This document shows, one piece after another, positions 4,174 to 17,794 of a stretch of DNA of 24,000 nucleotides (within the stretch, counting starts at the first letter, position 1; the number at the start of each line of letters is the position of its first letter). The DNA is from an uncultured Bacteroidales bacterium. GTDB lineage: Bacteria; Bacteroidota; Bacteroidia; Bacteroidales; UBA932. The translations under genes and the position numbers were made by a program. The notes beneath the pieces are model-generated. The model had not been told where the DNA came from and searched no databases. It was given only the letters and a program-made list of their open reading frames with translations. The stretch spans positions 40,519 to 64,518 of the forward strand of contig ONEF01000015.1 of NCBI GenBank assembly GCA_900316795.1. The letters are read 5' to 3'.

Positions 4174-6354
4174 ATGACAGATATCCTTGACACCGACATA
4201 AAATACCTTCCCGGAATAGGACCTAAAAGAGCAGAGCTGCTTTCCAAGGAGATTGGAGTGCATACGTTCAGGGATATGCTTTACTATTTCCCTTTCCGAT
4301 GGATAGACAAGAGCAAGGTTTATCCGATTTCCAGCATCGCAGGAGACGATATGCCTGATGGTGAAGACACCCCTTCTTCTTCCTATGTCCAGGTAAGGGG
4401 GATAGTCACAAAGAAAGAAACCGCAGGTATGACCGGCGGAAGGGTTGCCAGAGGCAAGAGCCGCCTGATTGTCACCTTGCAGGATGCCACAGCAAGTATC
4501 GAGATGGTGTTTTTCAGCGGCTTGAAGTGGATCAACGAAAAACTGGAACAAGGTCAGGAATACATAGCCTTCGGAAAGCCTACCGTATTCAACGGGCATG
4601 TGAATCTTGTGCATCCTGAAGTTTACCGCCCCTCGGAAGCAGCCACTTACGGAACTGGATCAATGGCAGGCATTTACTCCATAACAGAAAGGATGAAGAA
4701 CGGAGGGTTCGGCATAAAGGCCATAACCAAAGTGGAAAGTGTCCTGCTGGAGAAGGTAAAGGGTCACATCAAGGAGACTCTTCCTCCCGGCATCATCCGT
4801 GACAAAGGACTCTGCTCCTTGGAAACAGCGCTTGTGAACATCCATTTCCCTTCCGGACAGAGAGAACTTGAAGAAGCCCAGAGAAGACTGAAGTTTGAAG
4901 AGCTGTTCTACCTGCAGCTCAGCCTGCTGAAGCAGAAAAACGCCAGGCTTTCCAAAGGCACAGGCATAATGATGACCAGGGTCGGAGACAATTTCAACCG
5001 TTGCTATCAGTCTCTGCCATACCCGCTTACAAATGCGCAGAAGCGGGTAATTAAGGAGATGAGGGAAGATATGCGGAGCGGAAAGCAGATGAACCGCCTC
5101 CTGCAGGGAGATGTCGGATCCGGCAAAACCCTGGTTGCGGTCCTGCTCTCGCTGATTGCTGTTGACAACGGCTACCAGGCCTGCATAATGGCCCCTACGG
5201 AAGTTCTTGCCAACCAGCATCTTGCCAGCATATCCAAGTTTCTCAAAGCCACGGATGCCAAAGTGGCTCTTCTTACCGGAAGCACAAAGGCAAAGGACAG
5301 GAAGCAGATTCTCAGCGACCTTTCCGACGGCACCATAAACATCATAGTGGGAACCCACGCCTTGATTGAAGACAGGGTGAAGTTCCACTCCCTGGGACTG
5401 GCAATCATTGATGAACAGCACCGCTTCGGAGTTGACCAGAGAAGCCGCCTGTGGAGCAAGAACGACGACTCCCTGGGGCAAACCCCTCTTCTTCCGCACA
5501 TAATGGTAATGACTGCCACCCCTATCCCAAGGACTTTAGCCATGACGCTGTACGGAGACCTGGATGTCAGCATCATAGACGAACTGCCTCCAGGCAGGAC
5601 ACCGGTTGTCACCCAGCATGCCTGGGAGAGCCAGAGAAGGCAGGTTTTCGATTTCATGAAAGCGCAGATAGATTCAGGGCGACAGGTCTTTGTGGTTTAT
5701 CCTCTGATAAAGGAAAGCGAAAAGATGGACTACGAGAATCTGGAAGAAGGATATTTGCGCATCGTGGAGGAGTTCAAGGCCCCTGAATACATAACTGCCG
5801 TGGTACACGGCAAGATGAAACCGGAAGACAAAGACATAGACATGCAGCTGTTCGCGTCCGGCAGAGCTGACATCCTTGTAGCTACCAGCGTCATAGAAGT
5901 TGGTGTTGATGTGCCTAACGCTTCCGTGATGGTCATAGAGAGCGCAGAGAGATTCGGCCTCAGCCAACTTCACCAGCTCCGCGGAAGGGTTGGAAGAGGA
6001 GCGGCAAAGAGCTACTGCATCCTGATGAGCGGATACAAGTTGAGCAAAGAAAGCCGGAAACGTCTGGAACTGATGTGCAAGACCACCGACGGGTTCCTGC
6101 TTGCTGAAGAAGACATGAAGATGAGAGGCCCTGGAGATCTGGAAGGCACATCCCAAAGCGGCCTGGCCATTGACCTGCATATTTCCTCCCTTTATCGCGA
6201 TGGAAGGTACCTTGAATCCGCCCGCCGGACCGCCCTGGATATTCTGGATAAGGACCCTCTCCTGCAATCAGCTGAGAACCACCTGTTGACTGAGCAGCTC
6301 AGGATTTTGCGCAAAGAAGGAAAAGACGTCAAAGACTACTCTTCAATCAGCTGA
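4174..6354 (+). CDS. recG: ATP-dependent DNA helicase RecG
   Basis: Wedge-domain N-terminal region followed by SF2 motifs GDVGSGKT, DEQHRFG, TATPIPRTL and QLRGRVGRG. I moved the start to ATG 4174 (MTDILDTDIKYLPG...). The 29 upstream codons are hydrophobic non-RecG sequence and contain the candidate promoter. Confidence 0.93.
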   Translation: MTDILDTDIKYLPGIGPKRAELLSKEIGVHTFRDMLYYFPFRWIDKSKVYPISSIAGDDMPDGEDTPSSSYVQVRGIVTKKETAGMTGGRVARGKSRLIVTLQDATASIEMVFFSGLKWINEKLEQGQEYIAFGKPTVFNGHVNLVHPEVYRPSEAATYGTGSMAGIYSITERMKNGGFGIKAITKVESVLLEKVKGHIKETLPPGIIRDKGLCSLETALVNIHFPSGQRELEEAQRRLKFEELFYLQLSLLKQKNARLSKGTGIMMTRVGDNFNRCYQSLPYPLTNAQKRVIKEMREDMRSGKQMNRLLQGDVGSGKTLVAVLLSLIAVDNGYQACIMAPTEVLANQHLASISKFLKATDAKVALLTGSTKAKDRKQILSDLSDGTINIIVGTHALIEDRVKFHSLGLAIIDEQHRFGVDQRSRLWSKNDDSLGQTPLLPHIMVMTATPIPRTLAMTLYGDLDVSIIDELPPGRTPVVTQHAWESQRRQVFDFMKAQIDSGRQVFVVYPLIKESEKMDYENLEEGYLRIVEEFKAPEYITAVVHGKMKPEDKDIDMQLFASGRADILVATSVIEVGVDVPNASVMVIESAERFGLSQLHQLRGRVGRGAAKSYCILMSGYKLSKESRKRLELMCKTTDGFLLAEEDMKMRGPGDLEGTSQSGLAIDLHISSLYRDGRYLESARRTALDILDKDPLLQSAENHLLTEQLRILRKEGKDVKDYSSIS

Positions 6355-6388
6355 GCCCATTTTTTTGGGTATTTTCAAAACAGATTCT

Positions 6389-6396
6389 TAAATTTG
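6389..6396 (+). promoter_or_regulatory. Candidate -7 promoter box (TAAATTTG) for the 6427-12267 operon
   Basis: Exact TAnnTTTG match 30 nt upstream of ATG 6427. It is the only sizeable intergenic gap before six tightly spaced genes. Confidence 0.4.
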
Positions 6397-6426
6397 TAAG
6401 AATATTTCCCGCAAACAGAAAGAGGT

Positions 6427-7074
6427 ATGAATACTAAAGAACAATTTGTGATCACAATCGCCCGTGAAATTGGATCCGGAGGACGCACCGTCGGCCGCAA
6501 ACTTGCTGAAAAACTTGGAGTCAGATACTCTGACAAAGAACTTATCAGAGCACTGAGAGAAAAGTTCGACCTTACAACCTATGGAATCGAGAAACTGAAA
6601 GCAGAAAAGAAAAGCTGGCTGGCAGACCTGATAAACAAGGTTGCCCCGGTCCCTAAACCGGAAATGCTCATGGATACCGACAAGAAGTTTACCCAGAGCC
6701 TCCGTTCAGAAGCCACCACAGACGCGGTGTTCAAAGCAGAGACTGAGATCCTGAAGGCAATCGCGGAGGAAAGTTCATGCGTCATTGCCGGCAGAAGCGG
6801 ATTCTTTGTGCTCAACGGGCATCCTAACAAACTTGACATCTTCATTACCGCTTCAAAGCCTAACCGCATCAAGAGGGTTGTCAGAAAACAGCACCTGACA
6901 GAAACCGAGGCGGAAACAATCATAGATTCAGTGGATGAAGGCCGTGACAACTACGTAAAACGCTACACGGGCAAAAGCCGCTATGATGCAAGGAACTACG
7001 ATATCGTTCTCAATGCAGACGGCCACACTGAACAGCAGCTTGTCGATATCATCCTTTCATACATTAAAGAATAA
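6427..7074 (+). CDS. Cytidylate-kinase-like family P-loop protein (function unknown)
   Basis: 215 aa. The N-terminus ITIAREIGSGGRTVGRKLAEKLGVRYSDKELI matches the pattern of the Cytidylate_kin2-type family (degenerate P-loop GSGG). The stop overlaps the next start by 1 nt (TAATG at 7072-7076). Confidence 0.75.
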   Translation: MNTKEQFVITIAREIGSGGRTVGRKLAEKLGVRYSDKELIRALREKFDLTTYGIEKLKAEKKSWLADLINKVAPVPKPEMLMDTDKKFTQSLRSEATTDAVFKAETEILKAIAEESSCVIAGRSGFFVLNGHPNKLDIFITASKPNRIKRVVRKQHLTETEAETIIDSVDEGRDNYVKRYTGKSRYDARNYDIVLNADGHTEQQLVDIILSYIKE

Positions 7075-8195
7075 TGGACCCAACCGTCAGCATGGATTCC
7101 CACTGCCAGGCAATAATCCAGGAATTCAGAGACAACCTTCCCGTTTTCAAGAAAGTCAGTTTTGAGATCAAAGACCTTCTTGAAAAGATGATTTCAGGCT
7201 GCGGCAAGGTTCATACAAATCTTGAAAACCAGCTCAAGGCCAAAGATCTGACGGGAGCCGGCATTCACGTGGCTTCCATTGAGTCAAGGGTAAAGGCAGA
7301 AGAGTCCCTTGCCGGTAAACTGGAACGCAAAGGCAATAAATACAAGTCTTTGGCAGACATCACGGACATCATCGGCCTGAGGGTGATAACCTTCTACATA
7401 GATGACGTGGACAAGGTGGCATCCGCCATTGAAAAGCTGTTTGAGATAGACTGGGAAAACTCCGTGGACAAGAGAAAGCTGCACCAGATAGACAGTTTCG
7501 GTTACCTCTCACTGCATTATATCTGCAAACTTCAAGACTTCCCGTACAGATTTGAGATCCAGTTGCGTACAGTTCTCCAGCATGCCTGGGCCAACATGGA
7601 TCACGATACGGGCTACAAGTCAGGGGTGGAGATACCGATGCAATACAGGAGAGCCATGAACCGTCTGGCTGGAATGCTGGAATTAATTGACGATGAGTTC
7701 AGCAAGATGCGTTCAGAGCTGACTGATTACAGAAGGAGCGTCCACAATCTGGTAGCATCCGGAAAACTGGACGAAGTCCCTCTTGACGGAGACACTTTCA
7801 GGAGTTATCTGGAACTCAAGCCTTTCGACAATCTCAACCGCCGGATAGCGTCCATGAACCAAGCTGAGATCCAGTCGGTCTCACTGATGAACTATCTGGC
7901 TATTTTCAAGGGATTGGGTTGCAAGACACTCGGAGACATAGACAAAATCATAAAGAAGTATTTTGAAGCAGCATACCAGATAGCCTGTTACCAGCTTGGG
8001 CTTACGGACCTTGACGTCATATCAGCTTCCCTGGGGCCTCAGAATCTCTGCATCGCCTACGTGTTGAAGAACGACGGCGGGAAGGCTGGTGTGCGGTACC
8101 TTTATGAACTGATTAACGGAACTTCCAACGGCAGCGAAATATGGGCCGAAATGATTATGGACCAAGCCCGCGATCTTCCTTTCATGAACAAGTAG
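7074..8195 (+). CDS. RelA/SpoT-domain small alarmone synthetase (SAS) with an unassigned C-terminal domain of about 170 aa
   Basis: 373 aa with all five synthetase blocks visible: SRVKAEESLAGKLERK, DIIGLRVITFY, FGYLSLHY, EIQLRTVLQHAWA and HDTGYK. I cannot assign residues from about 205 to 373 to any family. Confidence 0.85.
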   Translation: MDPTVSMDSHCQAIIQEFRDNLPVFKKVSFEIKDLLEKMISGCGKVHTNLENQLKAKDLTGAGIHVASIESRVKAEESLAGKLERKGNKYKSLADITDIIGLRVITFYIDDVDKVASAIEKLFEIDWENSVDKRKLHQIDSFGYLSLHYICKLQDFPYRFEIQLRTVLQHAWANMDHDTGYKSGVEIPMQYRRAMNRLAGMLELIDDEFSKMRSELTDYRRSVHNLVASGKLDEVPLDGDTFRSYLELKPFDNLNRRIASMNQAEIQSVSLMNYLAIFKGLGCKTLGDIDKIIKKYFEAAYQIACYQLGLTDLDVISASLGPQNLCIAYVLKNDGGKAGVRYLYELINGTSNGSEIWAEMIMDQARDLPFMNK

Positions 8196-8199
8196 AACT

Positions 8200-8790
8200 A
8201 TGGCAAACAAACCTCTCGATACAAAACTGCTGGACAAGGCAATCATCTTCGCCGTAAAGGCTCACGCCGGAACGGAGAGAAGAGGAAAAGGCTTTCCTTA
8301 CATCGTGCATCCGATGGAGGCTGTAGAAATTGTCTCCACGATGACCTCAGACCAGGAACTCCTTGCCGCCGCTGCCCTCCACGACACCGTGGAAGACACT
8401 TATGTCACAATAGACCTCATACGGAAAGTGTTCGGAGACCGCATAGCAGACATCGTGGAAGCTGAAAGTGACAAAGGGGTAAACGACAAAAGCGCTGAAG
8501 CCAGCTGGCATGAACGCAAGAAGGCTGCCATAGACAGGCTGGCCAAGGCTCCTTTTGACGCTAAATTGGTGGCGCTGGGAGACAAGCTCTCCAACATGAG
8601 GGCAATCGCACGGGATTATTCCATAAGAGGAGATGAACTGTGGAAAATATTCCACACCAACGACCGCAAAGACCACGAATGGCACTACAGGGGCCTGGCG
8701 GAATCGCTGAGAGAACTTGAAGACACTTTTGCTTACAAAGAGTTCGTAACCTTGATAGACCAGGTTTTCGGAAAGAGCCATGACACTTAA
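8200..8790 (+). CDS. HD-domain (p)ppGpp-hydrolase-like small alarmone hydrolase (SAH, Mesh1/SpoT-hydrolase type)
   Basis: 196 aa. It carries KAHAGTERRGKGFPYIVHPMEAV followed by AAALHDTVEDT (the H...HD...D metal site of the RSH hydrolase domain). It starts 4 nt after the SAS stop. Confidence 0.85.
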   Translation: MANKPLDTKLLDKAIIFAVKAHAGTERRGKGFPYIVHPMEAVEIVSTMTSDQELLAAAALHDTVEDTYVTIDLIRKVFGDRIADIVEAESDKGVNDKSAEASWHERKKAAIDRLAKAPFDAKLVALGDKLSNMRAIARDYSIRGDELWKIFHTNDRKDHEWHYRGLAESLRELEDTFAYKEFVTLIDQVFGKSHDT

Positions 8791-9640
8791 AACAAACAAT
8801 AAAAAACAGATGGATCCTATCAGAATATCCCTAGACGACTATACCCTTTCCGGCGGCGGCGCCAACGGGGAGAGCTATGACAACAAGACAGACCCTTCTG
8901 TGATGCTGAAACTTTACTTTCCCGGCATGATAGAACAGCCTCTGAACGAAATGCTGCTTGCCAGGAAAGTATATGACCTTGGCATACCTACCCCAAAGCC
9001 AGGAGATTACGTCATTACCGAAGACGGGCGCTACGGTATCCGTTTCCACAAGATAGAAGGTAAGGTTTCATATTCCAAGGCAACCAGCCTGCATCCTGAA
9101 AATGTGGGGCAATATGCCTCGGAGTTCGCCCGTATGTGCCTGGACCTGCACTCGATGCATATAGACACATCGCTGTTTGAAAGCGTAAAGAAACGCTACT
9201 TCAAGCTTCTGGAAGACAACCCGTTCTTCACTCCAAAAGAAAAGGACAAGATAGGAAAGTTCATCGCTGACACTCCTGACGAAGACACCCCTATCCACGG
9301 AGATCTCCAGTACAGCAATGCCATCTTTGCAGGAGACAAACGTTATTTCATAGACTTGGGAGATTTCTCCTGGGGGAACCACCTGTTTGACGTTGCAATG
9401 GTATATCTTTGCTGCTATCTCAGCGATCCTGCATTCATACTGGAAACCTACCATCTGCAGAAACCTTTGGCAATGAAGTTCTGGGACTGCTTTGCACCGG
9501 TTTATTTCGGCTCCGGCGTTCCATTGAAAGATATCGAAGAAATGATTATGCCTTATGCCGGCCTCAAGACACTTATCATTGAAAGAAACACACGCCGGCC
9601 TATGCCAGAATTCAGGGCTGCACTAAAAAGCATATTATGA
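8780..9640 (+). CDS. Phosphotransferase, aminoglycoside/choline-kinase (APH) fold
   Basis: 286 aa with kinase catalytic loop IHGDLQYSN and metal-binding FIDLGDF. The start is either ATG 8780 (11-nt overlap with the SAH gene) or ATG 8810. The stop overlaps the next start (ATGA at 9637-9640). Confidence 0.8.
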   Translation: MTLKTNNKKQMDPIRISLDDYTLSGGGANGESYDNKTDPSVMLKLYFPGMIEQPLNEMLLARKVYDLGIPTPKPGDYVITEDGRYGIRFHKIEGKVSYSKATSLHPENVGQYASEFARMCLDLHSMHIDTSLFESVKKRYFKLLEDNPFFTPKEKDKIGKFIADTPDEDTPIHGDLQYSNAIFAGDKRYFIDLGDFSWGNHLFDVAMVYLCCYLSDPAFILETYHLQKPLAMKFWDCFAPVYFGSGVPLKDIEEMIMPYAGLKTLIIERNTRRPMPEFRAALKSIL

Positions 9641-11910
9641 AAAGTAGAGAGAAAATAAGGTCCGATTTCAAAAAGATAAAGGACGCTGCTTCAGAAAGAT
9701 CAATGAAAAAGAAGTCTTTCTGGACAGGCTTGGTTCTGATAGCCTTTGCGGCAGTTTTCCTGGAAGCCATTTCCCTTCTACAGGCGCACTATGCCAAGAA
9801 AGGAGTGAGGACCGAGGCTATAGCCAGGGCTGAAAGCCAGCTGAACTCGACCCGCAACAACATCCTGAATATTGTCAACCAGGTTGAAAGTGCGGTCAGG
9901 AACACCGTATGGGTAGCCCAGTGGTGCCTGGATGTTCCGGACAGCCTCCAAAACATCCCCAAGCTGATAGTAAACAACAACCCGATAGTAGCCGGTTCCA
10001 CGATAGCGCTTGTGCCAGGCTATTACAAAGACCGTCCTTTATATGCGCCTTATTCTGCCATCACAAACGGGGAGATTATGGACAAGACGCTGGCAACTCC
10101 AGAATACGACTACCCGTCAAAGGAGTGGTTCACAAAACCAATAGAAAAGGAAAAAGACTACTGGTCAGAACCATATATAGACACCGGAGGCGGAGAAATC
10201 CTGATGACAACATATTCCGTTCCTATCCGAGACAAGACCGGCCGCATAGCAGCTGTCCTTACAGCGGACCTGGATCTGGAATGGCTTTCCACACTTGTTG
10301 AAGGCCTGAAAATCTACCCTAGCGCCTTCAGCACTGTAGTCAGCCGCACTGGACAGATTATGGTCAGCCCGGCAGAAACACTGGTGATGAAAACCAACAT
10401 CAACGAATTTGCATCATCCGTCAAAGACTCCAATGACCTTAAGAAGCTCAACGCCGCAATGCTCAACAGAGAAAGCGGAAATATGCTGATCACGCACGAA
10501 GGCGAGAAGAACATGGTACTGTTCGGCCCTATAGACAGGACCGGCTGGGCTATCAACGTATTCATTCCTGAGAAGGAGATATTTGCCAACCTGGACAAGC
10601 TCAGCAGTTTCATAAGGATTCTCCAGCTGCTTGGACTCGTGCTTCTGTTCCTGATAATGAGATCGGTAGCCAACAGCCAGATCCGTTTCAAGGCTATCAA
10701 CGACAGAAAAGAAAAGATGGAAAACGAGCTCCACATAGCCAGCAGGATCCAGATGTCCATGATTCCGAAGATATTCCCTCCGTTCCCTACAAGGAAAGAC
10801 ATAGACATGGCGGCAGACATTGTTCCAGCCAAGGAAGTTGGTGGAGACCTGTATGACTTTTTCATCCGCGACGAGAAACTTTTCTTCTGCATCGGGGATG
10901 TATCAGGCAAGGGAGTGCCTGCATCTATGGTAATGGCCGTGACACGCAGCCTCTTCCGCAGCGTGTCCACCCGGGAAGACAACCCGGCAGACATAGTTTC
11001 TTCCATCAACGACAGCATGTCTGACATGAATGAAAGCAACATGTTCGTAACCTTCTTCTGCGGAGTTCTCAATCTGTCTGACGGGACTCTGAAGTACTGC
11101 AACGCAGGCCATAACGCTCCTCTTATACTCACTGACAGAATAGAGTGCCTCAATGTCGTACCTAACCTGCCTATAGGAGTTCTCAAAGGTATGGGCTACC
11201 AGCAACAGGAGACTTCTCTAAAATACGATGACGCCATCTTCCTCTACACAGACGGCATAACAGAAGCCGAGAACCTGAAACACGAACAGTTTGGCCTGAC
11301 CCGGCTCAAGAACACCCTCTCAGGCAGGAAAGCCTCAATTGAACATCTCAAGAATGTACAGACGGCTGTGTCAAAGTTCGTGGACGGAGCGCCTCAGAGC
11401 GATGACATGACTATGCTGTTCATCCACTACCTCAACAGCAACATAATGGTGGCAGGAGGCACTCCGGAGGCCAACAACGGCTTGAACGATAACTCTGACA
11501 GTTCATACAGCTTGCGCATCACCAATGACATACAGCAGATACGCAAACTTTCCGAACTTATAGACAAAATCGCTGAGGAAAATAAAATCTCCAACCAGCT
11601 CCACTCCAGCATAAATCTTGCAGTGGAAGAAGCCGTGACCAACGTAATATGTTATGCGTATGGAGAAAAGAAGAACATGCCTATAGACATAAACGTTTTC
11701 GTCCGTGAGGGAGAGATAAAATTTGACATCGAAGACTCCGGCAAACCATTCGACCCTACGGCAGCACCTAAGGCCAACACCGCCTCAGATGCTGACCAGC
11801 GCCAGGTAGGAGGCTTGGGAATACATTTGTTCAAAAACATAATGGACAGCGTAAACTATTCATACAGAGACGGCAAAAACATATTGTCATTGACAAAGCG
11901 CTTTATCTGA
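9637..11910 (+). CDS. Membrane sensor fusion: Cache-like periplasmic domain, then PP2C/SpoIIE phosphatase, then RsbW-like HATPase serine kinase
   Basis: 757 aa. TM1 is FWTGLVLIAFAAVFLEAISLL. A Cache-like region follows (EWFTKPIEKEKDYWSEPYIDTGGGEILMTTYSVPI), then TM2 LLGLVLLFLIM. The PP2C/SpoIIE block is AKEVGGDLYDF...IGDVSGKGVPASMVMA...YTDGITEA...DDMTML. The C-terminal HATPase_c_2 block is EEAVTNVICYA, DSGKPFD, GGLGIHL. Confidence 0.85.
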   Translation: MKSREKIRSDFKKIKDAASERSMKKKSFWTGLVLIAFAAVFLEAISLLQAHYAKKGVRTEAIARAESQLNSTRNNILNIVNQVESAVRNTVWVAQWCLDVPDSLQNIPKLIVNNNPIVAGSTIALVPGYYKDRPLYAPYSAITNGEIMDKTLATPEYDYPSKEWFTKPIEKEKDYWSEPYIDTGGGEILMTTYSVPIRDKTGRIAAVLTADLDLEWLSTLVEGLKIYPSAFSTVVSRTGQIMVSPAETLVMKTNINEFASSVKDSNDLKKLNAAMLNRESGNMLITHEGEKNMVLFGPIDRTGWAINVFIPEKEIFANLDKLSSFIRILQLLGLVLLFLIMRSVANSQIRFKAINDRKEKMENELHIASRIQMSMIPKIFPPFPTRKDIDMAADIVPAKEVGGDLYDFFIRDEKLFFCIGDVSGKGVPASMVMAVTRSLFRSVSTREDNPADIVSSINDSMSDMNESNMFVTFFCGVLNLSDGTLKYCNAGHNAPLILTDRIECLNVVPNLPIGVLKGMGYQQQETSLKYDDAIFLYTDGITEAENLKHEQFGLTRLKNTLSGRKASIEHLKNVQTAVSKFVDGAPQSDDMTMLFIHYLNSNIMVAGGTPEANNGLNDNSDSSYSLRITNDIQQIRKLSELIDKIAEENKISNQLHSSINLAVEEAVTNVICYAYGEKKNMPIDINVFVREGEIKFDIEDSGKPFDPTAAPKANTASDADQRQVGGLGIHLFKNIMDSVNYSYRDGKNILSLTKRFI

Positions 11911-11964
11911 AAACCAAAGGGTAAAGGCTCATTTAAACGAAACAAAAACAAAAAAAAATAAAAC

Positions 11965-12267
11965 ATGAAGATCAACACCAAAAGACAAGAAGGCATCGTG
12001 ACCGCCGAACTCGTCGGCAGACTTGATACCCCCGCATCGCAGGAAGTTGGAAACGACCTGCTGGTCCTTCAGAACGATGCAGACAAAACCATTATTCTTG
12101 ACTGCACAGCCTTGGAATACATCTCATCTTCAGGATTGAGGCTTTTTCTCACTCTCAGGAAAGCCGCCAGCCAGAAAGGCGGCAAAGTCATTGTGAAAAA
12201 CATAAATGACGACATCCGAAGCGTCTTTATGATGACAGGCTTTTTGAACTTGTTTGAGATTATTTGA
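11965..12267 (+). CDS. STAS-domain anti-sigma-factor antagonist (SpoIIAA/RsbV-like)
   Basis: 100 aa with ELVGRLDTPAS and ALEYISSSGLRLFL (conserved phospho-acceptor Ser context). Preceded by an A-rich leader. Confidence 0.9.
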   Translation: MKINTKRQEGIVTAELVGRLDTPASQEVGNDLLVLQNDADKTIILDCTALEYISSSGLRLFLTLRKAASQKGGKVIVKNINDDIRSVFMMTGFLNLFEII

Positions 12268-12299
12268 CGCACAAAGTCTCTGCACAAAAAGAAGGGATG

Positions 12300-12340
12300 A
12301 AAAAAAGGGGTGACCAGTAATTTGGCCACCCCCTTTCTGT
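12300..12340. terminator. Bidirectional rho-independent terminator between the convergent STAS and hsp20 genes
   Basis: AAAAAA-GGGGTGACCA-gtaatt-TGGCCACCCC-TTT. A 10-bp GC-rich stem (one mismatch) is flanked by an A-run and a T-run, so it can terminate both strands. Confidence 0.6.
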
Positions 12341-12366: not shown

Positions 12367-12804
12367 CTACTTGACCTCTATCATCCTGTGCTCTTCTGTC
12401 TTAGGCTCCTTCACAATCTTAGGGAGATGAACATTCAAGACACCGTTCTCCATCTTTGCCTCAATCTTCTCCCTATCCACGTCGTCAGGCAGAACCAGAC
12501 TCTGATGGAACTTCTCGTAAGAGAATTCACGCCTCAGGAACCTACCCTTCTTTCCACCCTCTTTCTCTTTGTTCTCGGTCTTCTTCTCCATATTGATTAC
12601 AAGGTTACCCTCGCTGTCGAGCTGAATCTTGAAGTCCTCCTTTGAAAGGCCTGGAGCCGCAAGTTCAAGTTCGTACTCTTTTTCGTTTTCAATTACATTG
12701 ATGGCAGGAGCCGTATAATTTGTCCTTTCCATCCAGCTGTTGTCGAAGAAATCATTGAATATCTCTGGCAGCCAGCTATTTGAAGTTCTTCTTACAGGTA
12801 GCAT
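12367..12804 (-). CDS. Hsp20/alpha-crystallin family small heat-shock protein
   Basis: 145 aa with an alpha-crystallin domain pattern: AINVIENEKEYELELAAPGLSKEDFKI, FLRREFSYEKFHQSLVLPDDVD, ENGVLNVHLPK. Confidence 0.93.
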   Translation of the reverse strand: MLPVRRTSNSWLPEIFNDFFDNSWMERTNYTAPAINVIENEKEYELELAAPGLSKEDFKIQLDSEGNLVINMEKKTENKEKEGGKKGRFLRREFSYEKFHQSLVLPDDVDREKIEAKMENGVLNVHLPKIVKEPKTEEHRMIEVK

Positions 12805-13975: not shown

Positions 13976-14545
13976 TCATACCTTTGCATCAGACAATGGC
14001 GGCTGAGGATATATCTGGGGATCGTGCCCAGAGGAAGATTCCCCGGCCGCTTTATTATACAGCACCTTTTCTATCTTCCCACTGCCCAGTTTTGATATAT
14101 CGCGACCAAAGACCGTCGAAATATTAGACACCAATATATTTCGCCCTATACTATTGACATTCAAGCCAACACAAATATTCTTATCTTTAATGATTGCCGA
14201 TGTATAGACCCTAAAACTTCTGCCACTTCCACCATAACTGCATATCGCCAGTGGTTCATTGATTACTTCCATTATCTCTAACCACAACTCCTCAGAAATA
14301 CTATGAAACGCATCCTTTGAATGTCTCTTTTCAGATATAACTCTTCTGTTAGCCGTTATGGCACCGTACATTCCATATTTATTCAGAATCTTACCTGTTA
14401 CCCCTATTTTGAAATAAGCCAAAGGAAGTTTCTCTCCCCTTTTCTTTTTCTGTATAAGCTCAATAAAACCAGCAAGATCAGATCCATTTCTCTTGTCATA
14501 CTCTTGTATCTTCCTGCCTATTGGAATAAAAACTTCCATACCCAT
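13976..14545 (-). CDS. Hypothetical 189-aa protein; weak resemblance to phage/conjugative-element Barnase-EndoU-ColicinE5/D-RelE-like (PBECR) nuclease modules
   Basis: Uninterrupted ORF in an AT-rich segment with its own copy of the repeat-borne promoter. The pattern SEKRHSKDAFHSISEELWLEIMEVINEPLAI...FRVYT...ICVGLNVN...VSNISTVFGRD recalls PBECR-type domains (KRH..H, then helix, then beta-strands). This is recalled from memory and not verified. Confidence 0.5.
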   Translation of the reverse strand: MGMEVFIPIGRKIQEYDKRNGSDLAGFIELIQKKKRGEKLPLAYFKIGVTGKILNKYGMYGAITANRRVISEKRHSKDAFHSISEELWLEIMEVINEPLAICSYGGSGRSFRVYTSAIIKDKNICVGLNVNSIGRNILVSNISTVFGRDISKLGSGKIEKVLYNKAAGESSSGHDPQIYPQPPLSDAKV

Positions 14546-14562
14546 CTACAACTAGAAAGGTA

Positions 14563-14644
14563 CAAAGCTACACCCAAAACCTACTCAGCACCAAGCCAAA
14601 CGGTAAAAATAACCCCGCACAATCCTGGAATTGTAAAAAAATGA
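14563..14644. repeat. Repeat copy B (left half plus core), carrying a minus-strand promoter for 13976-14545
   Basis: caaagctacaccc...agccaaacggtaaaaataaccccgcACAATCCTGGAATTGTAAAAAAAtga aligns along its length with copy C. On the minus strand it reads TAGCTTTG (TAnnTTTG) 17 nt before ATG 14545, with TTTG motifs upstream. Confidence 0.85.
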
Positions 14645-14670
14645 GGGGAATATAGTCAAACTTCTGACTT

Positions 14671-14706
14671 CCTCAAGATCAAAGGTTTCCTCAAGATCAA
14701 AGGCTT
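14671..14706. repeat. Direct tandem repeat, 2 x 18 bp
   Basis: CCTCAAGATCAAAGGTTT then CCTCAAGATCAAAGGCTT, head to tail, between the small-gene fragment and repeat copy B. Confidence 0.9.
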
Positions 14707-14723
14707 CCCAAAAGCGCCATCGC

Positions 14724-14765
14724 CTACTTGTACTTCTGGAAGTTATACTTTTCTCTCAGCGATGC
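14724..14765 (-). pseudogene. Duplicated 3' fragment (last 13 codons plus stop) of the small Cys-rich gene at 16086-16277
   Basis: 14723-14765 is identical to 16085-16127 (43 bp) and encodes ASLREKYNFQKYK*. Similarity continues with 2 mismatches into the 9 bp past the stop (14714-14722 vs 16076-16084). There is no start codon and no upstream coding sequence. Confidence 0.8.
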
Positions 14766-14778
14766 TGTAACACGCCCG

Positions 14779-15789
14779 TCACTTTTTGAGCTTCATCCTG
14801 ATCTGCCCCACCTCATCGGCCAACTGGACAGAAGACGGCAGATACAGCTCGTAACGGCTCGCCATAATTGTTTTGTTATCTGCCGGCAATGCCATTTTTA
14901 CTACAGTATCATTCTTGCTGGAACACAGCAGTATACCTATAGTCGGATTCTCTTCCTCCAGTTTCTCGCACCTGTCGTAATAGTTTACATACATCTGCAA
15001 CTGCCCCAAATCCTGGTGTGTGAGTTTTCCCGTCTTTAATTCCACAACCACAAAACACCTCAACAATCTGTTATACAATACCAGATCAACAAAGAACTCG
15101 TCATCCTCAAGCATTATACGCCTCTGGCGGGCAACAAACGAAAAACCTTTTCCCATTTCCAGCAAAAACTCGGTCAGATGGTCTATTATCGCACTCTCCA
15201 GATCTTTTTCATAGTACGATGGCCTTCTTTCCAACCCCAAAAACTCAAGCATCATCGGGTCTTTAATGACTTCTTGAGGGTTCTCCGGTATTCTATCACG
15301 TCTGGCGACAGCAAGAACAGACTCTTTGTCATTGCTTATAAGAAGTCTTTCATACAAGCCTGAGTAAATCTGGCGTTCAAGTTCCCTGCTGTTCCATCCA
15401 TTGTTCACTGCCTCAAGTTCGTAATACTCTCGTTTATCTTCATTGGGAATCGCTATAAGTAACTTATACTGAGTCCAATTCAATTGTGAACGCAGTGCGT
15501 GCACAATTGGATAAGTAATGAAAAACTGTCTACATAAATTCAGTTGCCTCACCCCAAATCCACTCCCATATTCCGGCTCAAGCCGCTCCGCCAACCTTTT
15601 TATCAGATAGCTCCCGTACTCGGCCCTGGCCTTCCCATGTTGCTCTTCCTCAAATATCCTGCGCCCGATATTCCAGTACATCTGAACACGGCTGAAGTTC
15701 ACGCTCCTGACGGCCCCTTCTCTAGCCTTGTCTATAATTCCCTTTATCTCCCCGATAAAACCTTCTTTCACAATCTTAAACTCATCCAT
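14779..15789 (-). CDS. DUF1016/YhcG-family PD-(D/E)XK nuclease domain protein
   Basis: 336 aa. The N-terminal part (RVQMYWNIGRRIFEEEQHGKARAEYGSYLIKRLAERL, GFGVRQLNLCRQFF) and the C-terminal nuclease core (FVDLVLYNRLLRCFVVVELKTGKLTHQDLGQLQMYVNYY) match my recollection of the family. Confidence 0.85.
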   Translation of the reverse strand: MDEFKIVKEGFIGEIKGIIDKAREGAVRSVNFSRVQMYWNIGRRIFEEEQHGKARAEYGSYLIKRLAERLEPEYGSGFGVRQLNLCRQFFITYPIVHALRSQLNWTQYKLLIAIPNEDKREYYELEAVNNGWNSRELERQIYSGLYERLLISNDKESVLAVARRDRIPENPQEVIKDPMMLEFLGLERRPSYYEKDLESAIIDHLTEFLLEMGKGFSFVARQRRIMLEDDEFFVDLVLYNRLLRCFVVVELKTGKLTHQDLGQLQMYVNYYDRCEKLEEENPTIGILLCSSKNDTVVKMALPADNKTIMASRYELYLPSSVQLADEVGQIRMKLKK

Positions 15790-15813
15790 AATACAGTGTC
15801 TCTAAATCCCCAT

Positions 15814-15919
15814 CAAAGCTACACCACACAAACACCCCAAACAAGCCAAATGGTAAAATTGACCCTGTACAATCCTGGAATTGTAAAAAAATGAATCAGT
15901 TTTTAAATGAATGTCTTGC
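15814..15919. repeat. Repeat copy C (full length), carrying a minus-strand promoter for 14779-15789
   Basis: It contains both the left half shared with B and the right half shared with A. The minus strand reads TAGCTTTG 24 nt before ATG 15789. Confidence 0.85.
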
Positions 15920-15985
15920 TACTGCCGAGTGCTGAATCTCGGCGATGGCGCCTTGCAAACAACAACTGGCTATCAGCAGATCCCC

Positions 15986-16020
15986 AAAAGCACCCCATAA
16001 AAAAGGCAGGGTGCTTTTTC
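15986..16020. terminator. Candidate bidirectional terminator downstream of the small Cys-rich gene
   Basis: AAAAGCACCC-cataaaaaaggca-GGGTGCTTTTT. A 7-bp stem is flanked by A and T runs, 66 nt past the minus-strand stop at 16086. Confidence 0.45.
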
Positions 16021-16085
16021 TCAGGCATACTGACATTCAACTACTTACAAAGCACCATCGCCGATTAAAGTGCAAACACCATCAC

Positions 16086-16277
16086 CTACTTGTACTTCTG
16101 GAAGTTATACTTTTCTCTCAGCGATGCCTTCACATCTTCATTCTGGTGCCTGAAATACCCCTTCCATCCCGGGCAGAAATTGATATGCCATCTCCAGAAC
16201 CTTCCTATCAGAGACTTAGGGTTCTTGTCATACCTTGCCCTGAACGGACATGTCTCACAACGATACTTCTTTGCCAT
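16086..16277 (-). CDS. Small Cys/His-containing basic protein (63 aa), function unknown
   Basis: ORF MAKKYRCETCPFRARYDKNPKSLIGRFWRWHINFCPGWKGYFRHQNEDVKASLREKYNFQKYK with CxxC...H..FC, a possible metal site. Its 3' end is duplicated at 14724-14765, and a terminator-like hairpin lies downstream. Confidence 0.55.
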   Translation of the reverse strand: MAKKYRCETCPFRARYDKNPKSLIGRFWRWHINFCPGWKGYFRHQNEDVKASLREKYNFQKYK

Positions 16278-16296
16278 AATTATATATTAAACAAAT

Positions 16297-16452
16297 CTAT
16301 CCAAGCACCACATCCAGCACCATCATCAGGGCAAACCCAAGCATCAGCTTCTGCATCCAGGCAGAAATCTCCTTTTTCAGGCAAAACACGAACCCTGCCC
16401 CCCCTACAGTTCCTGCCAGTGGTATCATCAATGCTGTCAGAATCTCTTTCAT
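16297..16452 (-). CDS. 51-aa hydrophobic ORF not in the supplied track; possibly a 5' fragment of a ZIP-family metal transporter
   Basis: My translation is MKEILTALMIPLAGTVGGAGFVFCLKKEISAWMQKLMLGFALMMVLDVVLG*. The pattern G.G...VF..KK.(8-10 aa).LGFA.G.M resembles the N-terminus of ZupT/GufA-type transporters. A TATATTTG -7 box (minus strand, 16460-16467) precedes it. Confidence 0.35.
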   Translation of the reverse strand: MKEILTALMIPLAGTVGGAGFVFCLKKEISAWMQKLMLGFALMMVLDVVLG

Positions 16453-16459
16453 CTCGGCA

Positions 16460-16511
16460 CAAATATACCAAGAAATACTTTTATTCTCAGCGACAAAGAA
16501 GTATTATCTTT
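16460..16511. promoter_or_regulatory. Divergent promoter region with two TAnnTTTG boxes
   Basis: Minus-strand TATATTTG (16460-16467) lies 7 nt upstream of ATG 16452. Plus-strand TATCTTTG (16504-16511) lies 12 nt upstream of ATG 16524. The plus-strand context ATTATCTTTGCAA is the same as at the recG promoter. Confidence 0.4.
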
Positions 16512-16523
16512 GCAACTGCTATA

Positions 16524-17303
16524 ATGGAAAATCTAACATCTATCGGTATTTCAGTGCTAGTCCTGGCTATTATTGTAATAGCTGTCACGTGGGCTATAAG
16601 AGGTATTGACTGGAAACTGATATTTAAACCCAAAGGAGAACGTGGAGAGTATTATGTCTCAAAACTGCTGAACCAGCTTCCAGAAGATCAATACCGCATC
16701 CTCAACGATATCACGATTCCAGGCAAATACAAAACATCGCAGATAGACCATATTGTCGTATCCATATATGGCATCTTTGTCATTGAAACAAAGTACTATA
16801 AGGGTTGGATTTTCGGTACTGAAGACAGTGAATACTGGACTCAGAACATATACGGATACAAGTATAGGCTGTACAATCCTATCCGCCAAAACAAAAGCCA
16901 TATCCTGGCATTGAAAAAAGCCCTTCCTGAACTTGAAGGCCTGCCTATTTTCTCAATCATAGCCTTCTCTTCTCAAGCACAGTTAGACAACAGGATTCCT
17001 TGCAGTTATGTTATTTACTGGGGCGATATTCTCCCCGCTATTACAAGCAGAAAACAAATCTCTCTTACCCAGGAGCAAGTTTCTTATCTCAGCGACAAAA
17101 TCTTATCGATTCGGCTAGATCCCGAACTAGCAAAATCCCGGCACATTAGCCAAGTCTACATAACCAAGTTTGTGAAGAATAGTAAGATACAATCTGGCAT
17201 TTGCCCTCGATGCGGAGGCAAGCTAGTCCTTAGGCATGGCAAATATGGCTCTTTCTACGGATGTTCAAACTATCCGTATTGCAAGTTCACGCTCGATACT
17301 TAA
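16524..17303 (+). CDS. Membrane-anchored NERD-domain protein with a C-terminal topoisomerase-type C4 zinc ribbon
   Basis: 259 aa taken from the internal ATG of the 452-aa track ORF. The TM helix is SIGISVLVLAIIVIAVTWAI. The NERD pattern is GERGEYYVSKLL...YRILNDITIP...SQIDHIVVSIYGIFVIETKYYKGWIFG. The Zn ribbon is CPRCGGKLVLRHGKYGSFYGCSNYPYCKFT. Confidence 0.85.
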   Translation: MENLTSIGISVLVLAIIVIAVTWAIRGIDWKLIFKPKGERGEYYVSKLLNQLPEDQYRILNDITIPGKYKTSQIDHIVVSIYGIFVIETKYYKGWIFGTEDSEYWTQNIYGYKYRLYNPIRQNKSHILALKKALPELEGLPIFSIIAFSSQAQLDNRIPCSYVIYWGDILPAITSRKQISLTQEQVSYLSDKILSIRLDPELAKSRHISQVYITKFVKNSKIQSGICPRCGGKLVLRHGKYGSFYGCSNYPYCKFTLDT

Positions 17304-17794
17304 TTATCGACGTTCTCAAGATTTGATTTACAACTAGATGTAGTTTCTTCTTGGCCTCCATACTCCTCACCGCTAATTCCCATGTCTTTGTTCTCAATAG
17401 AATCAGATTCTAACTCTTTAATAATCATTGGAAGCAATATCTCATCAGCTGGTAGCCAATTAACGCTATAGATATCATTGATTTCAAGCCATCTAGCCGC
17501 TTCGTGTTCATTTAGATGAATAGCTTCTGCCGCTAATGAACACATATAACAATGCATAATTAAATGAAACTTCGGATAATCCCACTCGACTGTATGTAGA
17601 AATTTATCTATGAGTATCTCAGTAGATAACTCTTCTCTAATCTCTCTTATTAGAGCGTCTTCGGGAGTCTCACCGAGTTCCATCTTTCCGCCAGGGAATT
17701 CCCACCAGTCTTTAAAATCACCATAACCACGCTGAGTGGCAAAAATCTCATTGTCTTTTCTAATAATTGCAGCAACTACTTCTATTGTTTTCAT
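17300..17794 (-). CDS. Nudix hydrolase (MutT/NudG-like (d)NTP pyrophosphohydrolase) with an acidic C-terminal tail
   Basis: 164 aa with an intact Nudix box GGKMELGETPEDALIREIREEL. The N-terminus VVAAIIRKDNEIFATQRG is typical of the MutT-like clade. The start overlaps the upstream helicase stop (ATGA at 17791-17794), and the stop overlaps the NERD gene stop. Confidence 0.9.
   Translation of the reverse strand: MKTIEVVAAIIRKDNEIFATQRGYGDFKDWWEFPGGKMELGETPEDALIREIREELSTEILIDKFLHTVEWDYPKFHLIMHCYMCSLAAEAIHLNEHEAARWLEINDIYSVNWLPADEILLPMIIKELESDSIENKDMGISGEEYGGQEETTSSCKSNLENVDN

Follow-up and report, generated by a model that had tools for sequence, protein, structure and literature searches.

A conserved Bacteroidales gene cassette that may place a small alarmone synthetase under the control of a partner-switching module

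Introduction

What does a partner-switching module control when its genes lie among those of alarmone metabolism and no sigma factor is encoded beside them? This question is raised by a cluster of six plus-strand genes in a stretch of 24,000 nucleotides of Bacteroidales DNA, referred to here as the window. In order, the cluster encodes a cytidylate-kinase-like P-loop protein, a small alarmone synthetase (SAS), a small alarmone hydrolase (SAH), a phosphotransferase of the APH fold, a membrane protein that joins a Cache sensor, a PP2C phosphatase and an RsbW-like kinase, and a STAS protein. Classical partner switches hold a sigma factor, the protein to which RsbW-type kinases classically bind, and we know of only a few partner switches whose output is something else. 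The control of small alarmone synthetases is attributed mainly to transcription and to the allosteric action of nucleotides or RNA, and we know of no such enzyme that has a phosphorylation-based partner switch as its input or an activity set by an extracellular ligand.

An earlier reading of the sequence alone, referred to below as the original prediction, proposed that these genes form one operon in which the turnover of nucleotide second messengers is functionally linked to a serine-phosphorylation switch. Here we follow up this proposal by computational analysis. Our results suggest that an outside signal is passed on to alarmone levels through a protein-phosphorylation switch and not through a sigma factor, and on balance we lean towards a conserved cassette in which the partner-switching module controls the small alarmone synthetase after translation.

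Results

Layout of the locus

All six plus-strand genes, their junctions, a promoter motif of the Bacteroides type and a terminal hairpin were found at the positions originally proposed when the open reading frames and the sequence were read (Table 1), and all six family assignments were borne out by Pfam and NCBIfam. At 7074 the sequence TAATG forms a 1-nt overlap between the cytidylate-kinase-like and SAS genes, and the SAS stop codon, TAG, is followed by a 4-nt gap to the SAH gene. The APH gene overlaps the SAH gene by 11 nt if read from the ATG at 8780 and follows it by 19 nt if read from the second ATG at 8810, the latter start being favoured by public gene calls and by the starts of homologues. 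The APH and sensor genes overlap by 4 nt (ATGA), and an A-rich gap of 54 nt separates the sensor gene from the STAS gene.

Table 1. Positions of the genes, domains and candidate regulatory elements in the window.
Feature	Position	Strand	Length	Description
recG	end at 6354			upstream of the cluster
Candidate Bacteroides-type promoter	6364..6396	+		-33 TTTG at 6364-6367, 21-nt spacer, -7 TAAATTTG at 6389-6396
Cytidylate-kinase-like P-loop protein	6427..7074	+	215 aa	PF13189 (Cytidylate_kin2, 1.3e-44)
SAS	7074..8195	+	373 aa	predicted N-terminal helix, RelQ/RelP-like SYNTH domain (~60-230), helical C-terminal domain (226-373)
SAH	8200..8790	+	196 aa	HD_4 (Pfam, 3.8e-21, 75.9 bits)
APH-fold phosphotransferase	8810..9640	+	276 aa	286 aa if read from 8780
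Membrane sensor phosphatase-kinase	9637..11910	+	757 aa	TM1 27-52, periplasmic dCache ~55-320, TM2 321-349 (Pfam, hydropathy)
PP2C/SpoIIE domain of the sensor protein	10729-11436	+		residues ~365-600
RsbW-like HATPase_c_2 domain of the sensor protein	11509-11907	+		residues 625-757
STAS protein	11965..12267	+	100 aa	YISSSGLR motif
Codon of STAS S55	12127-12129	+		putative phospho-acceptor
Hairpin element	12307..12340			G+C-rich hairpin at 12307-12332, then CTTTCTGTT on the + strand and TTTTTTTC on the - strand
HSP20 gene	12367-12804	-		convergent with the cluster

The first ATG of the cluster lies 31 nt downstream of the -7 motif. TAnnTTTG, the sequence searched for as the Bacteroides promoter motif, occurs in the window at chance frequency (18 observed vs 15.9 expected), so that the candidate promoter is picked out solely by its position. 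Two further plus-strand copies of the -7 motif fall within genes (at 9404 and 11822), and internal promoters may therefore exist; read-through from recG may also enter the cluster. A scan with the sigma-70 promoter and terminator consensus, which does not cover Bacteroides promoters, returned sites that were no commoner than in shuffled sequence, and the terminator scan detected no terminator-like hairpin on the plus strand within the cluster. The region 12300-12340 had been proposed as the terminator of the operon. A hairpin is present there (folding energy of -25.7 kcal/mol for an 89-nt stretch, z = -1.6), which the consensus terminator scan of the plus strand did not pick up; its better T-run is on the minus strand, and we therefore regard it as a terminator that serves HSP20, the convergent gene, as well as the cluster. 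The cluster is presumably co-transcribed as one unit. An Rfam search of the window found no RNA family, alarmone riboswitches included. Nuclease and helicase genes of the defence-island type were observed 2-8 kb downstream, in a low-GC stretch.

Components of the switch

The sensor protein carries Pfam domains MCP-like_PDC_1/dCache_1, SpoIIE (6.6e-48, 163.6 bits) and HATPase_c_2 (3.2e-23, 82.6 bits). The PP2C residues D421, D539, D589 and D590 are invariant in 65/65 loci of the related cassettes described below, and the kinase N-box (E664, E665, N669) and G-boxes are kept in 63 of these 65. The STAS protein was recognized by Pfam STAS (1.3e-17) and by TIGR00377 (63.7 bits, above the cut-off of 53.45); its YISSSGLR motif is invariant in 41-42 of 42 loci, and we take its S55 to align with the phospho-serine S58 of SpoIIAA. 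In 64 loci the STAS gene always lies directly 3' of the kinase-bearing gene (median gap of 16 nt). Judged by these domains and motifs, the locus appears to encode the components of a partner switch, namely a PP2C phosphatase, an RsbW-type kinase and a single-domain STAS protein with a putative phospho-acceptor serine.

The partner that such switches classically hold was searched for as well. In agreement with the original prediction that no sigma factor is encoded nearby, the window genes scanned contain no sigma domain, and none occurs in the Pfam-annotated related loci. Nor was a conserved sigma neighbour found: 17 of 80 loci is the most in which any other gene family recurs, and none of the few recurrent families checked is a sigma factor. 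The sigma factor that is usually co-encoded as the partner in RsbU/V/W-type systems is thus missing at the level of the locus, although one might be encoded elsewhere in the genome.

Alarmone enzymes

The SAS protein matched Pfam RelA_SpoT (1.1e-20, 74.4 bits vs a cut-off of 27) and had no second Pfam domain (no HD, TGS or ACT). The RxK, Mg-binding D, G-loop Y and ExQ residues are all present in the alignments and across 64 loci, in which R72, K74, D98, Y144, H148, E161 and Q163 are invariant. By domain content and catalytic residues, the protein can be classed as a putative SYNTH-only small alarmone synthetase of the RSH family. Its sequence matches in the PDB were RelQ and RelP, and its AF2 model (pLDDT 92.3) had 5ded and 6ex0 as best Foldseek matches (E 1e-9), CapRel being weaker; the enzyme is RelQ/RelP-like in sequence and in predicted fold, and its product is most likely (p)ppGpp. 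For the helical C-terminal domain (~150 aa, pLDDT 94.8), a structure search of the PDB found no solved structural relative, the best match having an E value of 2.5.

The SAH protein displays the H...HD...ED...D..N motifs of HD_4, which identify it as a probable small alarmone hydrolase, and H37, H61, D62, E65, D66, D128 and N132 are invariant in 49 loci. Its closest solved chains are 7qoe, 4yf1 and 7qoc (1e-21 to 3e-18), presumably all stand-alone SAHs. We also considered Aph1, a (p)ppApp-specific hydrolase with a C-terminal specificity region at ~Y90-E143 (PMC10083569). At the level of the overall alignment, an assignment of the window SAH to the Aph1 type is not supported: the (p)ppApp-specific chain 7smg aligns only with residues 9-86, the region of the HD motifs (4.7e-8), and the protein is closer to 7qoe, 4yf1 and 7qoc than to this (p)ppApp-specific enzyme. 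The SAS and SAH genes are adjacent in 48/50 loci, inside a cassette of five to seven genes.

Kinase-fold proteins

The APH-fold protein matched Pfam APH (2.4e-12) and fell just under the cut-off of TIGR02172 (1.3e-61, 208.3 bits vs 228.2). An identity as an aminoglycoside resistance enzyme was rejected on the scores for APH(6) (16.8 vs 500 bits) and TIGR02172, both below cut-off; what it appears to have in common with aminoglycoside phosphotransferases is the kinase fold and the Brenner motif only. No solved relative was found by sequence. H163, D165, N170 and D182 are invariant in 58 loci (numbered from the 8810 start, 276-aa form), and the gene is a core member of the cassette, present in 47/50 loci. 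An accessory Y_phosphatase3 gene, absent from the window, occurs alongside it in 17 of the 80 loci.

The cytidylate-kinase-like protein scored below the equivalog cut-offs for (d)CMP kinases (21.1 vs 135.55 bits for TIGR00017, 37.7 vs 102.1 bits for TIGR02173), and this identity was rejected. Its nearest solved structure, 3hdt, is annotated as a 'putative kinase', and we know of no PF13189 member with a tested function. The gene occurs in just 6/50 related loci, each time adjoining SAS or SAH. A first impression gained from two loci (L004 and L005), that the APH gene is accessory and the cytidylate-kinase-like gene core, was reversed by the survey of 80 loci.

Conservation of the cassette

A genome scan with an alignment of the SAS family yielded 80 loci, those with the greatest similarity to the window SAS (51-69% identity), all from rumen and gut Bacteroidales. 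Synteny was counted in 50 of them, each from a species-level genome, that had 6 kb or more of DNA on either side. The genes for SAS, SAH, the APH-fold protein, the PP2C-RsbW-like protein and STAS are on one strand and no more than 8 kb from the SAS gene in 46/50 loci, a figure that describes this clade and not every carrier of the family, because the scan kept the 80 loci nearest to the window SAS. The junctions between the genes are tight or overlapping (median gaps of 5-29 nt), and every catalytic or phospho-acceptor motif that was checked in the five proteins shows little or no variation (42-65 loci). The conserved six-family neighbourhood originally envisaged is therefore kept in five of its members, the cytidylate-kinase-like gene being accessory. 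The expected conservation of gene order outside this genome was contradicted, as the five genes occur in 16 different orders and with different flanking genes; it is co-localisation, not order, that is conserved. Based on this co-localisation, we conclude that the link between the five clustered genes is real, and that a functional connection between alarmone turnover and the switch is strongly supported.

SAS homologues in some Prevotella and in all Clostridiales examined are stand-alone genes, and the enzyme therefore does not need the switch; stand-alone homologues of 34-35% identity are without any antitoxin gene. The closest relatives, L004 and L005, are without the APH gene and keep the rest of the cluster.

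Locus variants and gene fusions

Several loci depart from the common composition. In L053 and L093, the SAS, SAH and APH genes are accompanied by a stand-alone RsbW-like kinase (141-149 aa) and STAS in a cluster without PP2C; the Cache domain is absent from L044 and L055; and L034 has two PP2C-STAS pairs in tandem. These variants indicate that the kinase domain and STAS are the constant companions of SAS, with sensor and phosphatase being swappable. They also bear on the proposed link between alarmone turnover and a ligand-gated serine-phosphorylation switch: co-localisation of the five genes in at least 46 genomes strongly supports the link, while gating by a Cache domain is not obligatory, since some loci have a Cache-less PP2C-HATPase protein or a stand-alone RsbW-like kinase.

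In three further, divergent proteins of 521 aa each (P0121, P0271 and P0272, the latter two 82% and 81% identical to the first), HATPase_c_2 is joined to SAS in a single chain. Their sources are JGI and two NCBI contigs that belong to a single metagenome assembly. Aligned with residues 625-756 of the window sensor protein, their kinase part shows 45% identity (E 3e-36), and it retains the N- and G-boxes; the fusion genes are isolated, neither a STAS nor a PP2C gene being close by. When metagenomes were scanned with the fusion junction, no fusions beyond these three came up; the matches were ordinary clusters and the variant in which the RsbW-like kinase stands alone, and the fusion is thus rare. 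The original prediction had named the SAS/SAH pair or one of the kinase-fold proteins as a candidate target of the switch; among these, it is SAS that gains support, from three natural fusions to an RsbW-like kinase. Two other joined proteins, P0128 (SAS with a carboxylesterase) and P0168 (an amidohydrolase with the SAS C-terminus), were each seen once and were set aside as likely artefacts of assembly or gene calling.

Co-variation between the families was examined by a mirror-tree analysis of 25 loci whose positive control, kinase-STAS, failed (partial r 0.06); it gave 0.56 for STAS-SAS, 0.64 for SAS-APH and 0.40 for STAS-APH. With its control failed, we give this analysis no weight as evidence; if anything, it points to STAS rather than the kinase domain as the contact of SAS.

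Discussion

Based on these findings, we propose the following mechanism. A periplasmic ligand of the Cache domain would, in the window protein, shift the balance between the PP2C phosphatase and the RsbW-like serine kinase that are carried by the same membrane protein, and this balance would set the phosphorylation of STAS at S55. The RelQ/RelP-like SAS would take the place of the sigma factor that classical partner switches hold, as a partner either held by the RsbW-like domain or bound by unphosphorylated STAS, and the switch would turn alarmone synthesis on or off. The HD-domain hydrolase would clear the alarmone product, making the signal transient. The APH-fold kinase, together with the cytidylate-kinase-like protein or Y_phosphatase3 where present, would act on the nucleotide side, in substrate supply, in product modification or on a further protein target. 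That SAS contacts the switch directly, and the direction in which it would be affected (activation or inhibition), is what we infer. More tentatively, the kinase domain or STAS might sequester or activate SAS in place of a sigma factor, such that the ligand directly sets the levels of (p)ppGpp-type alarmones in Bacteroidales that abound in rumen and gut, with the invariant APH-fold kinase and its optional companions adding phosphate to the nucleotide or removing it, to yield an undescribed messenger or layer of control; we regard this fuller version as plausible and somewhat doubtful.

The output of the switch might instead be encoded elsewhere, whether it is a sigma factor, some other regulator of transcription or a different enzyme, with SAS, SAH and APH merely being co-expressed stress genes of the operon. 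The sigma-binding habit of classical RsbW-type kinases would fit this explanation, as would the isolation of the fusion genes, the existence of orphan SAS genes and the frequent proximity of heat-shock genes (HSP20, ClpB). We nevertheless consider it unlikely: co-expression leaves unexplained the cohesion of five genes across 16 rearrangements and does not account for the joining of a kinase domain to SAS, and the loci have no conserved sigma neighbour in a phylum, Bacteroidota, that to our knowledge is without sigma factors of the sigma-B or sigma-F type. Another candidate for the true partner of the switch, or for its effector, is the APH-fold kinase, or a small molecule that it phosphorylates, with SAS and SAH modulating APH or vice versa. 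APH is a core gene (47/50) with invariant catalytic residues, it could form a kinase-phosphatase pair with the Y_phosphatase3 of 17/80 loci, and it had the highest residual co-variation with SAS (0.64; with STAS, 0.40) in the mirror-tree analysis, whose positive control failed. The two closest relatives do without APH and keep the rest of the cluster, and no fusion of APH to the switch proteins was seen; a central role for APH is quite unlikely in our view.

An anti-phage module or a toxic SAS with its antitoxin (a type IV toxin-antitoxin pair), triggered by the switch, would be in keeping with the FaRel/ATfaRel-like placement of SAS beside SAH (PMC7229694), with the match of the SYNTH domain to the PADLOC candidate PDC-S33 (6e-16) and with the defence-island-type genes downstream. 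That match, however, is confined to the catalytic domain, and for the remaining five proteins PADLOC gave nothing meaningful (the one match, of the cytidylate-kinase-like protein to the pVip-kinase, is weak, 3.3e-05). SAS is nearest in fold and sequence to the non-toxic RelQ/RelP, CapRel being weaker, its homologues of 34-35% identity stand alone without an antitoxin, and a periplasmic ligand sensor is ill-suited to the sensing of phages; we thus give a toxic or anti-phage role very little weight. Chance adjacency without any functional link is scarcely credible, given that in 46/50 species all five genes share a strand and are closely spaced or overlap, despite their shuffled order and varied flanks.

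Control of SAS by the partner switch, the reading that we favour, has its closest analogue in SiaABCD of Pseudomonas aeruginosa, in which the PP2C phosphatase SiaA and the kinase SiaB set the phosphorylation of SiaC (PMC7647112, PMC8457831), and SiaC binds and activates SiaD, a diguanylate cyclase of the same operon (PMC8457831, PMC7647112). What the two would have in common is an enzyme output, a synthase of a nucleotide messenger, in place of a sigma factor; that the window switch might likewise bind its co-encoded synthase has indirect support in the conserved synteny and in the HATPase_c_2-SAS fusion. Whereas the output of SiaABCD makes c-di-GMP, that proposed for the window cluster is a synthetase of the RelA/SpoT type; the window cluster also differs in having phosphatase and kinase fused on one Cache-bearing membrane protein and in including a dedicated hydrolase and an APH-fold kinase. 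The SiaA model matched the window sensor protein only weakly (NF038263, 38.6 bits vs a cut-off of 700). With RsbU/RsbV/RsbW and SpoIIE/SpoIIAA/SpoIIAB of Bacillus, the window cluster has in common three domain families, their motifs and the phospho-serine; it differs in the fusion of kinase and phosphatase and in having no sigma factor gene, and its proteins score under the RsbW, SpoIIAB and SpoIIAA equivalog cut-offs.

In Chlamydia, RsbU has a periplasmic sensor domain ahead of PP2C. SypE of Vibrio fischeri reportedly has RsbW-like kinase and PP2C domains that are both directed at a single STAS protein, and an output other than a sigma factor, and its sensor is said to be a receiver domain; its domain order and sensor thus differ from those of the window protein. 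One report describes SypE as a serine kinase interacting with the STAS-domain protein SypA (PMC10120452). Unlike the window cluster, neither SypE/SypA nor Chlamydia RsbU/RsbV/RsbW is linked to alarmone enzymes, and our literature search found no paper in which small alarmone synthetases are connected with STAS or partner switching. On the alarmone side, RelQ/RelP of Firmicutes match the window SAS in catalytic-domain sequence, predicted fold and catalytic residues; the window family differs by its extra helical C-terminal domain of 150 aa and by its setting in Bacteroidales, within a switch cluster. FaRel/ATfaRel, a toxic SAS and its SAH antitoxin encoded by adjacent genes (PMC7229694), resembles the window in that a SAS gene adjoins a SAH gene. 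It differs as a locus of two or three genes rather than a cassette of five to seven, in which SAS is nearer to non-toxic enzymes.

If our proposal is true, the cassette would be one more partner switch with a non-sigma output, and would connect an environmental ligand, by a path that can be tested, with a stringent-type response in Bacteroidales, a dominant yet little-studied group in rumen and gut. In addition, the APH-fold kinase family, the P-loop kinase family and the SAS C-terminal domain gain an experimental context from the cassette. Heat-shock genes were observed near a number of the clusters, HSP20 in the window, L004, L016, L018, L053 and L055, and ClpB in L092.

Conservation of the gene cluster across Bacteroidales

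A one-genome-per-species scan with the alignment of the small alarmone synthetase (SAS) yielded 80 loci, every one of them from Bacteroidales of the rumen or gut (SAS identity 51-69%), in which relatives of the window proteins were placed by tblastn. Fifty of them have 6 kb or more of sequence on either side of the SAS gene, and in 46 of these the genes for SAS, the small alarmone hydrolase (SAH), the APH-fold phosphotransferase (APH), the PP2C-kinase protein and the STAS protein share one strand and lie no further than 8 kb from SAS. This count holds for the 80 best matches to the window SAS rather than for the whole family. The gene order, which the original prediction expected to be conserved, is not: these 46 loci show 16 different orders, the commonest being SAS-SAH-APH-PP2C-STAS (20 loci) and PP2C-STAS-SAS-APH-SAH (13 loci). 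What is kept instead is co-localisation, with tight junctions between cluster genes across the related loci. Since the content survives repeated shuffling in differing genomic surroundings, we consider this strong evidence that the five genes form a functional unit. The activity motifs of all five proteins are invariant or nearly so (42-65 loci), including YISSSGLR, which holds the phospho-acceptor serine.

The cytidylate-kinase-like gene always adjoins SAS or SAH but occurs at 6 of the 50 loci; it is an accessory, and the predicted six-family neighbourhood stands for five families. A second accessory, Y_phosphatase3 (PF13350), has no copy in the window and is found at 17 of the 80 loci and at one further locus; it could make a third pair of opposing enzymes with the APH-fold kinase. 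Beyond these accessories, no recurrent family is conserved across the 80 loci, and the few recurrent ones checked are not sigma factors. SAS homologues from Clostridiales (34-35% identity) and one from Prevotella are stand-alone genes, suggesting that the linkage is specific to this clade.

Gene layout and products

ORF calling in the window, which is DNA of an uncultured Bacteroidales bacterium, placed six plus-strand genes exactly where they had been predicted, the junctions read directly from the sequence agree as well (-1, +4, -11 or +19, -4 and +54 nt), and all six family assignments were upheld by Pfam and NCBIfam. In order, the products are Cytidylate_kin2 (PF13189), a RelA_SpoT synthetase domain (SAS), an HD_4 hydrolase (SAH), an APH-fold kinase near TIGR02172, a 757-aa sensor protein with dCache, SpoIIE-type PP2C and RsbW-like HATPase_c_2 domains, and a 100-aa STAS protein. 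Equivalog cut-offs ruled out a true CMP kinase identity for the first. For the APH-fold gene, a start at 8810 is favoured by public gene calls and by where homologues begin. The Cache domain lies between two hydrophobic segments (residues 27-52 and 321-349), which places the sensor in the periplasm and the phosphatase and kinase in the cytoplasm. Among solved chains, SAH is most similar to 7qoe, 4yf1 and 7qoc, and its match to Aph1, which is (p)ppApp-specific (PMC10083569), is confined to the HD motif.

Features of the window and of related loci
Feature	Location	Strand	Remark
-7 box TAAATTTG	6389-6396	+	Bacteroides-type; -33 TTTG 21 nt upstream, first ATG 31 nt downstream
Cytidylate-kinase-like gene	6427-7074	+	
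SAS	7074-8195	+	TAATG, 1-nt overlap with preceding gene
SAH	8200-8790	+	4-nt gap after SAS stop codon
APH-fold gene	8780 or 8810-9640	+	-11 nt; +19 nt if second ATG used
Sensor gene	9637-11910	+	ATGA, 4-nt overlap
STAS gene	11965-12267	+	after A-rich 54-nt spacer
Hairpin	12307-12332		cluster end; better T-run on - strand
HSP20	12367-12804	-	convergent, downstream of cluster
MuF_C-like ORF	13976-14545	-	orphan
YhcG/DUF1016 PDDEXK nuclease	14779-15789	-	
NERD + Zn-ribbon protein	15945-17303	+	
NUDIX protein	17300-17794	-	
PLD-helicase-DUF3427 protein	17791-20730	-	979 aa
HSP20, other loci	L004, L016, L018, L053, L055		upstream of cluster
ClpB	L092 6074-8665		upstream of cluster
Y_phosphatase3	L049, L059, L065-L071, L073, L075-L080, L085; plus L092		usually last gene, after SAH
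Kinase-SAS fusion genes	L086 8001-9566; L087 2282-3847		lone genes adjoining MFS transporter

The predicted promoter at 6389 has both its -7 box and its -33 TTTG, but the -7 motif alone is no commoner than chance in the window (18 found, 15.9 expected); two more plus-strand copies, at 9404 and 11822, fall inside genes, so internal promoters may exist. A scan of the window found no terminator-like hairpin on the plus strand within the cluster. A hairpin does end the cluster within the proposed terminator (12300-12340), but it is not exclusive to it: given its better T-run on the opposite strand, the convergent HSP20 gene shares it. No Rfam family was found in the window.

SAS is RelQ/RelP-like both by sequence, against solved structures, and in its predicted fold (AF2 pLDDT 92.3; best Foldseek matches 5ded and 6ex0), and proteins identical to it carry only the annotation "hypothetical". 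The family is large, with over 7,500 clusters when 90% identity is applied; at 50% identity, 938 representatives have E < 1e-30. An extra C-terminal domain of ~150 residues (residues 226-373, window 7749-8192; a high-confidence prediction, pLDDT 94.8, pTM 0.89), also present in the stand-alone Clostridiales homologues, gave no Foldseek match to solved structures (best E 2.5); its 'GxKTLGDI' motif resembles a helix-hairpin-helix. A 19-residue insertion (residues 44-62, window 7203-7259; regional pLDDT lower, 77) separates the N-terminal helix from the catalytic domain and is absent from every aligned homologue of 354-367 aa. It is probably restricted to the closest relatives of the window, since a length of 373-374 aa is shared only with the proteins P0001-P0003. 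In one protein, P0156 (528 aa, on a single 3.3-kb Logan contig), the synthetase domain precedes an HD_4 hydrolase domain, an order opposite to that of long RelA/SpoT enzymes; seen once, this may be either a genuine fusion or an artefact of gene calling.

Proposed output of the switch

In three proteins of 521 aa each (P0121, P0271 and P0272, the latter two 82% and 81% identical to the first), an RsbW-like HATPase_c_2 domain is fused to the SAS N-terminus. Over the kinase part they share 45% identity with the C-terminal domain of the window sensor protein, and the ATP-binding boxes are kept. The fusion is rare: these three sequences, from two contigs of a single NCBI metagenome assembly and from JGI, are the only ones found, a metagenome scan having added none. 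No STAS or PP2C gene was found within 8 kb of the fusion genes.

The sensor also varies. dCache is present at most loci, often with HAMP, and two loci (L044 and L055) have a PP2C-kinase protein without Cache. At L053 (6102-6836) and L093 (2741-3497), a stand-alone RsbW-like kinase of 141-149 aa directly precedes STAS, and no PP2C gene was found within either cluster. At L034 (11465-16435), two tandem PP2C-kinase genes, each with its own STAS after it, follow a single SAS-SAH-APH set; here several sensors may feed one output. Judged from gene content, phosphatase and sensor appear exchangeable between loci, and the kinase domain and STAS together appear as the part never parted from the SAS, SAH and APH genes.

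The original prediction held that no sigma factor is encoded nearby, and indeed neither the scanned window genes nor the annotated related loci yielded a sigma domain. Given the kinase-SAS fusion, the exchangeable phosphatase and sensor and the lack of a co-encoded sigma factor, we propose that the cluster is likely a partner switch with the alarmone synthetase as its output. SAS had been named as a candidate target; the fusion, the constant kinase and STAS companions and the missing sigma factor point to it. Its contact partner would be either the kinase domain or unphosphorylated STAS, and the fusion favours the kinase domain. Residual co-variation in a crude mirror-tree analysis (STAS-SAS 0.56, SAS-APH 0.64) is not relied on, as the positive control, kinase-STAS, failed at 0.06. 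In the simplest model, the synthetase, with (p)ppGpp or (p)ppApp as its candidate product, would be the partner that is sequestered or activated, and the hydrolase would reset the signal. The firm basis here consists of the cluster's gene content, the conserved motifs and synteny, and the kinase-SAS fusion; all beyond that we infer.

Chance juxtaposition of the cluster genes is excluded, contradicted as it is by the five genes on one strand at 46 of 50 loci. If the switch output lay elsewhere in the genome, with the alarmone genes merely co-expressed, both the conserved co-localisation and the kinase-SAS fusion would be left unexplained, and we regard this as unlikely. That the APH-fold kinase is the true effector seems to us a little less likely still. 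A toxic-SAS/antitoxin or defence module is very unlikely: SAS is more like the non-toxic RelQ/RelP than CapRel, family members occur alone without an antitoxin, a PADLOC candidate is matched by the SAS catalytic domain only, and a periplasmic ligand sensor would be an odd trigger for phage defence.

Relation to known systems and genomic surroundings

The component families of the cluster are textbook families. The serine kinase SypE and the STAS-domain protein SypA interact (PMC10120452). SypE/SypA is reportedly also a case of a fused kinase-phosphatase that acts on a STAS protein. Functionally, the switch comes closest to the SiaABCD system of Pseudomonas aeruginosa: a PP2C-kinase pair there controls whether SiaC is phosphorylated, and SiaC in turn binds the diguanylate cyclase SiaD and activates it (PMC7647112, PMC8457831). 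Jimmy et al., who surveyed the gene neighbourhoods of SAS, describe toxin-antitoxin arrangements and do not mention the present one (PMC7229694), and a 2011 RSH survey summarised Bacteroidia as having Rel and RshB (PMC3153485). A full-text literature search found nothing linking STAS or partner switching to small alarmone synthetases, in agreement with the original prediction, which knew of no described pathway of such composition. As no paper joining the two was found, we rate a partner switch with an alarmone synthetase as its likely output as a new arrangement of known parts.

Heat-shock genes stand beside the cluster in several differing arrangements, which may point to a connection with proteotoxic stress. 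Downstream of the cluster, the stretch at 13976-20730 resembles a defence or mobile island, part of which, at 17.5-21 kb of the window, has a low G+C content (0.34-0.36).
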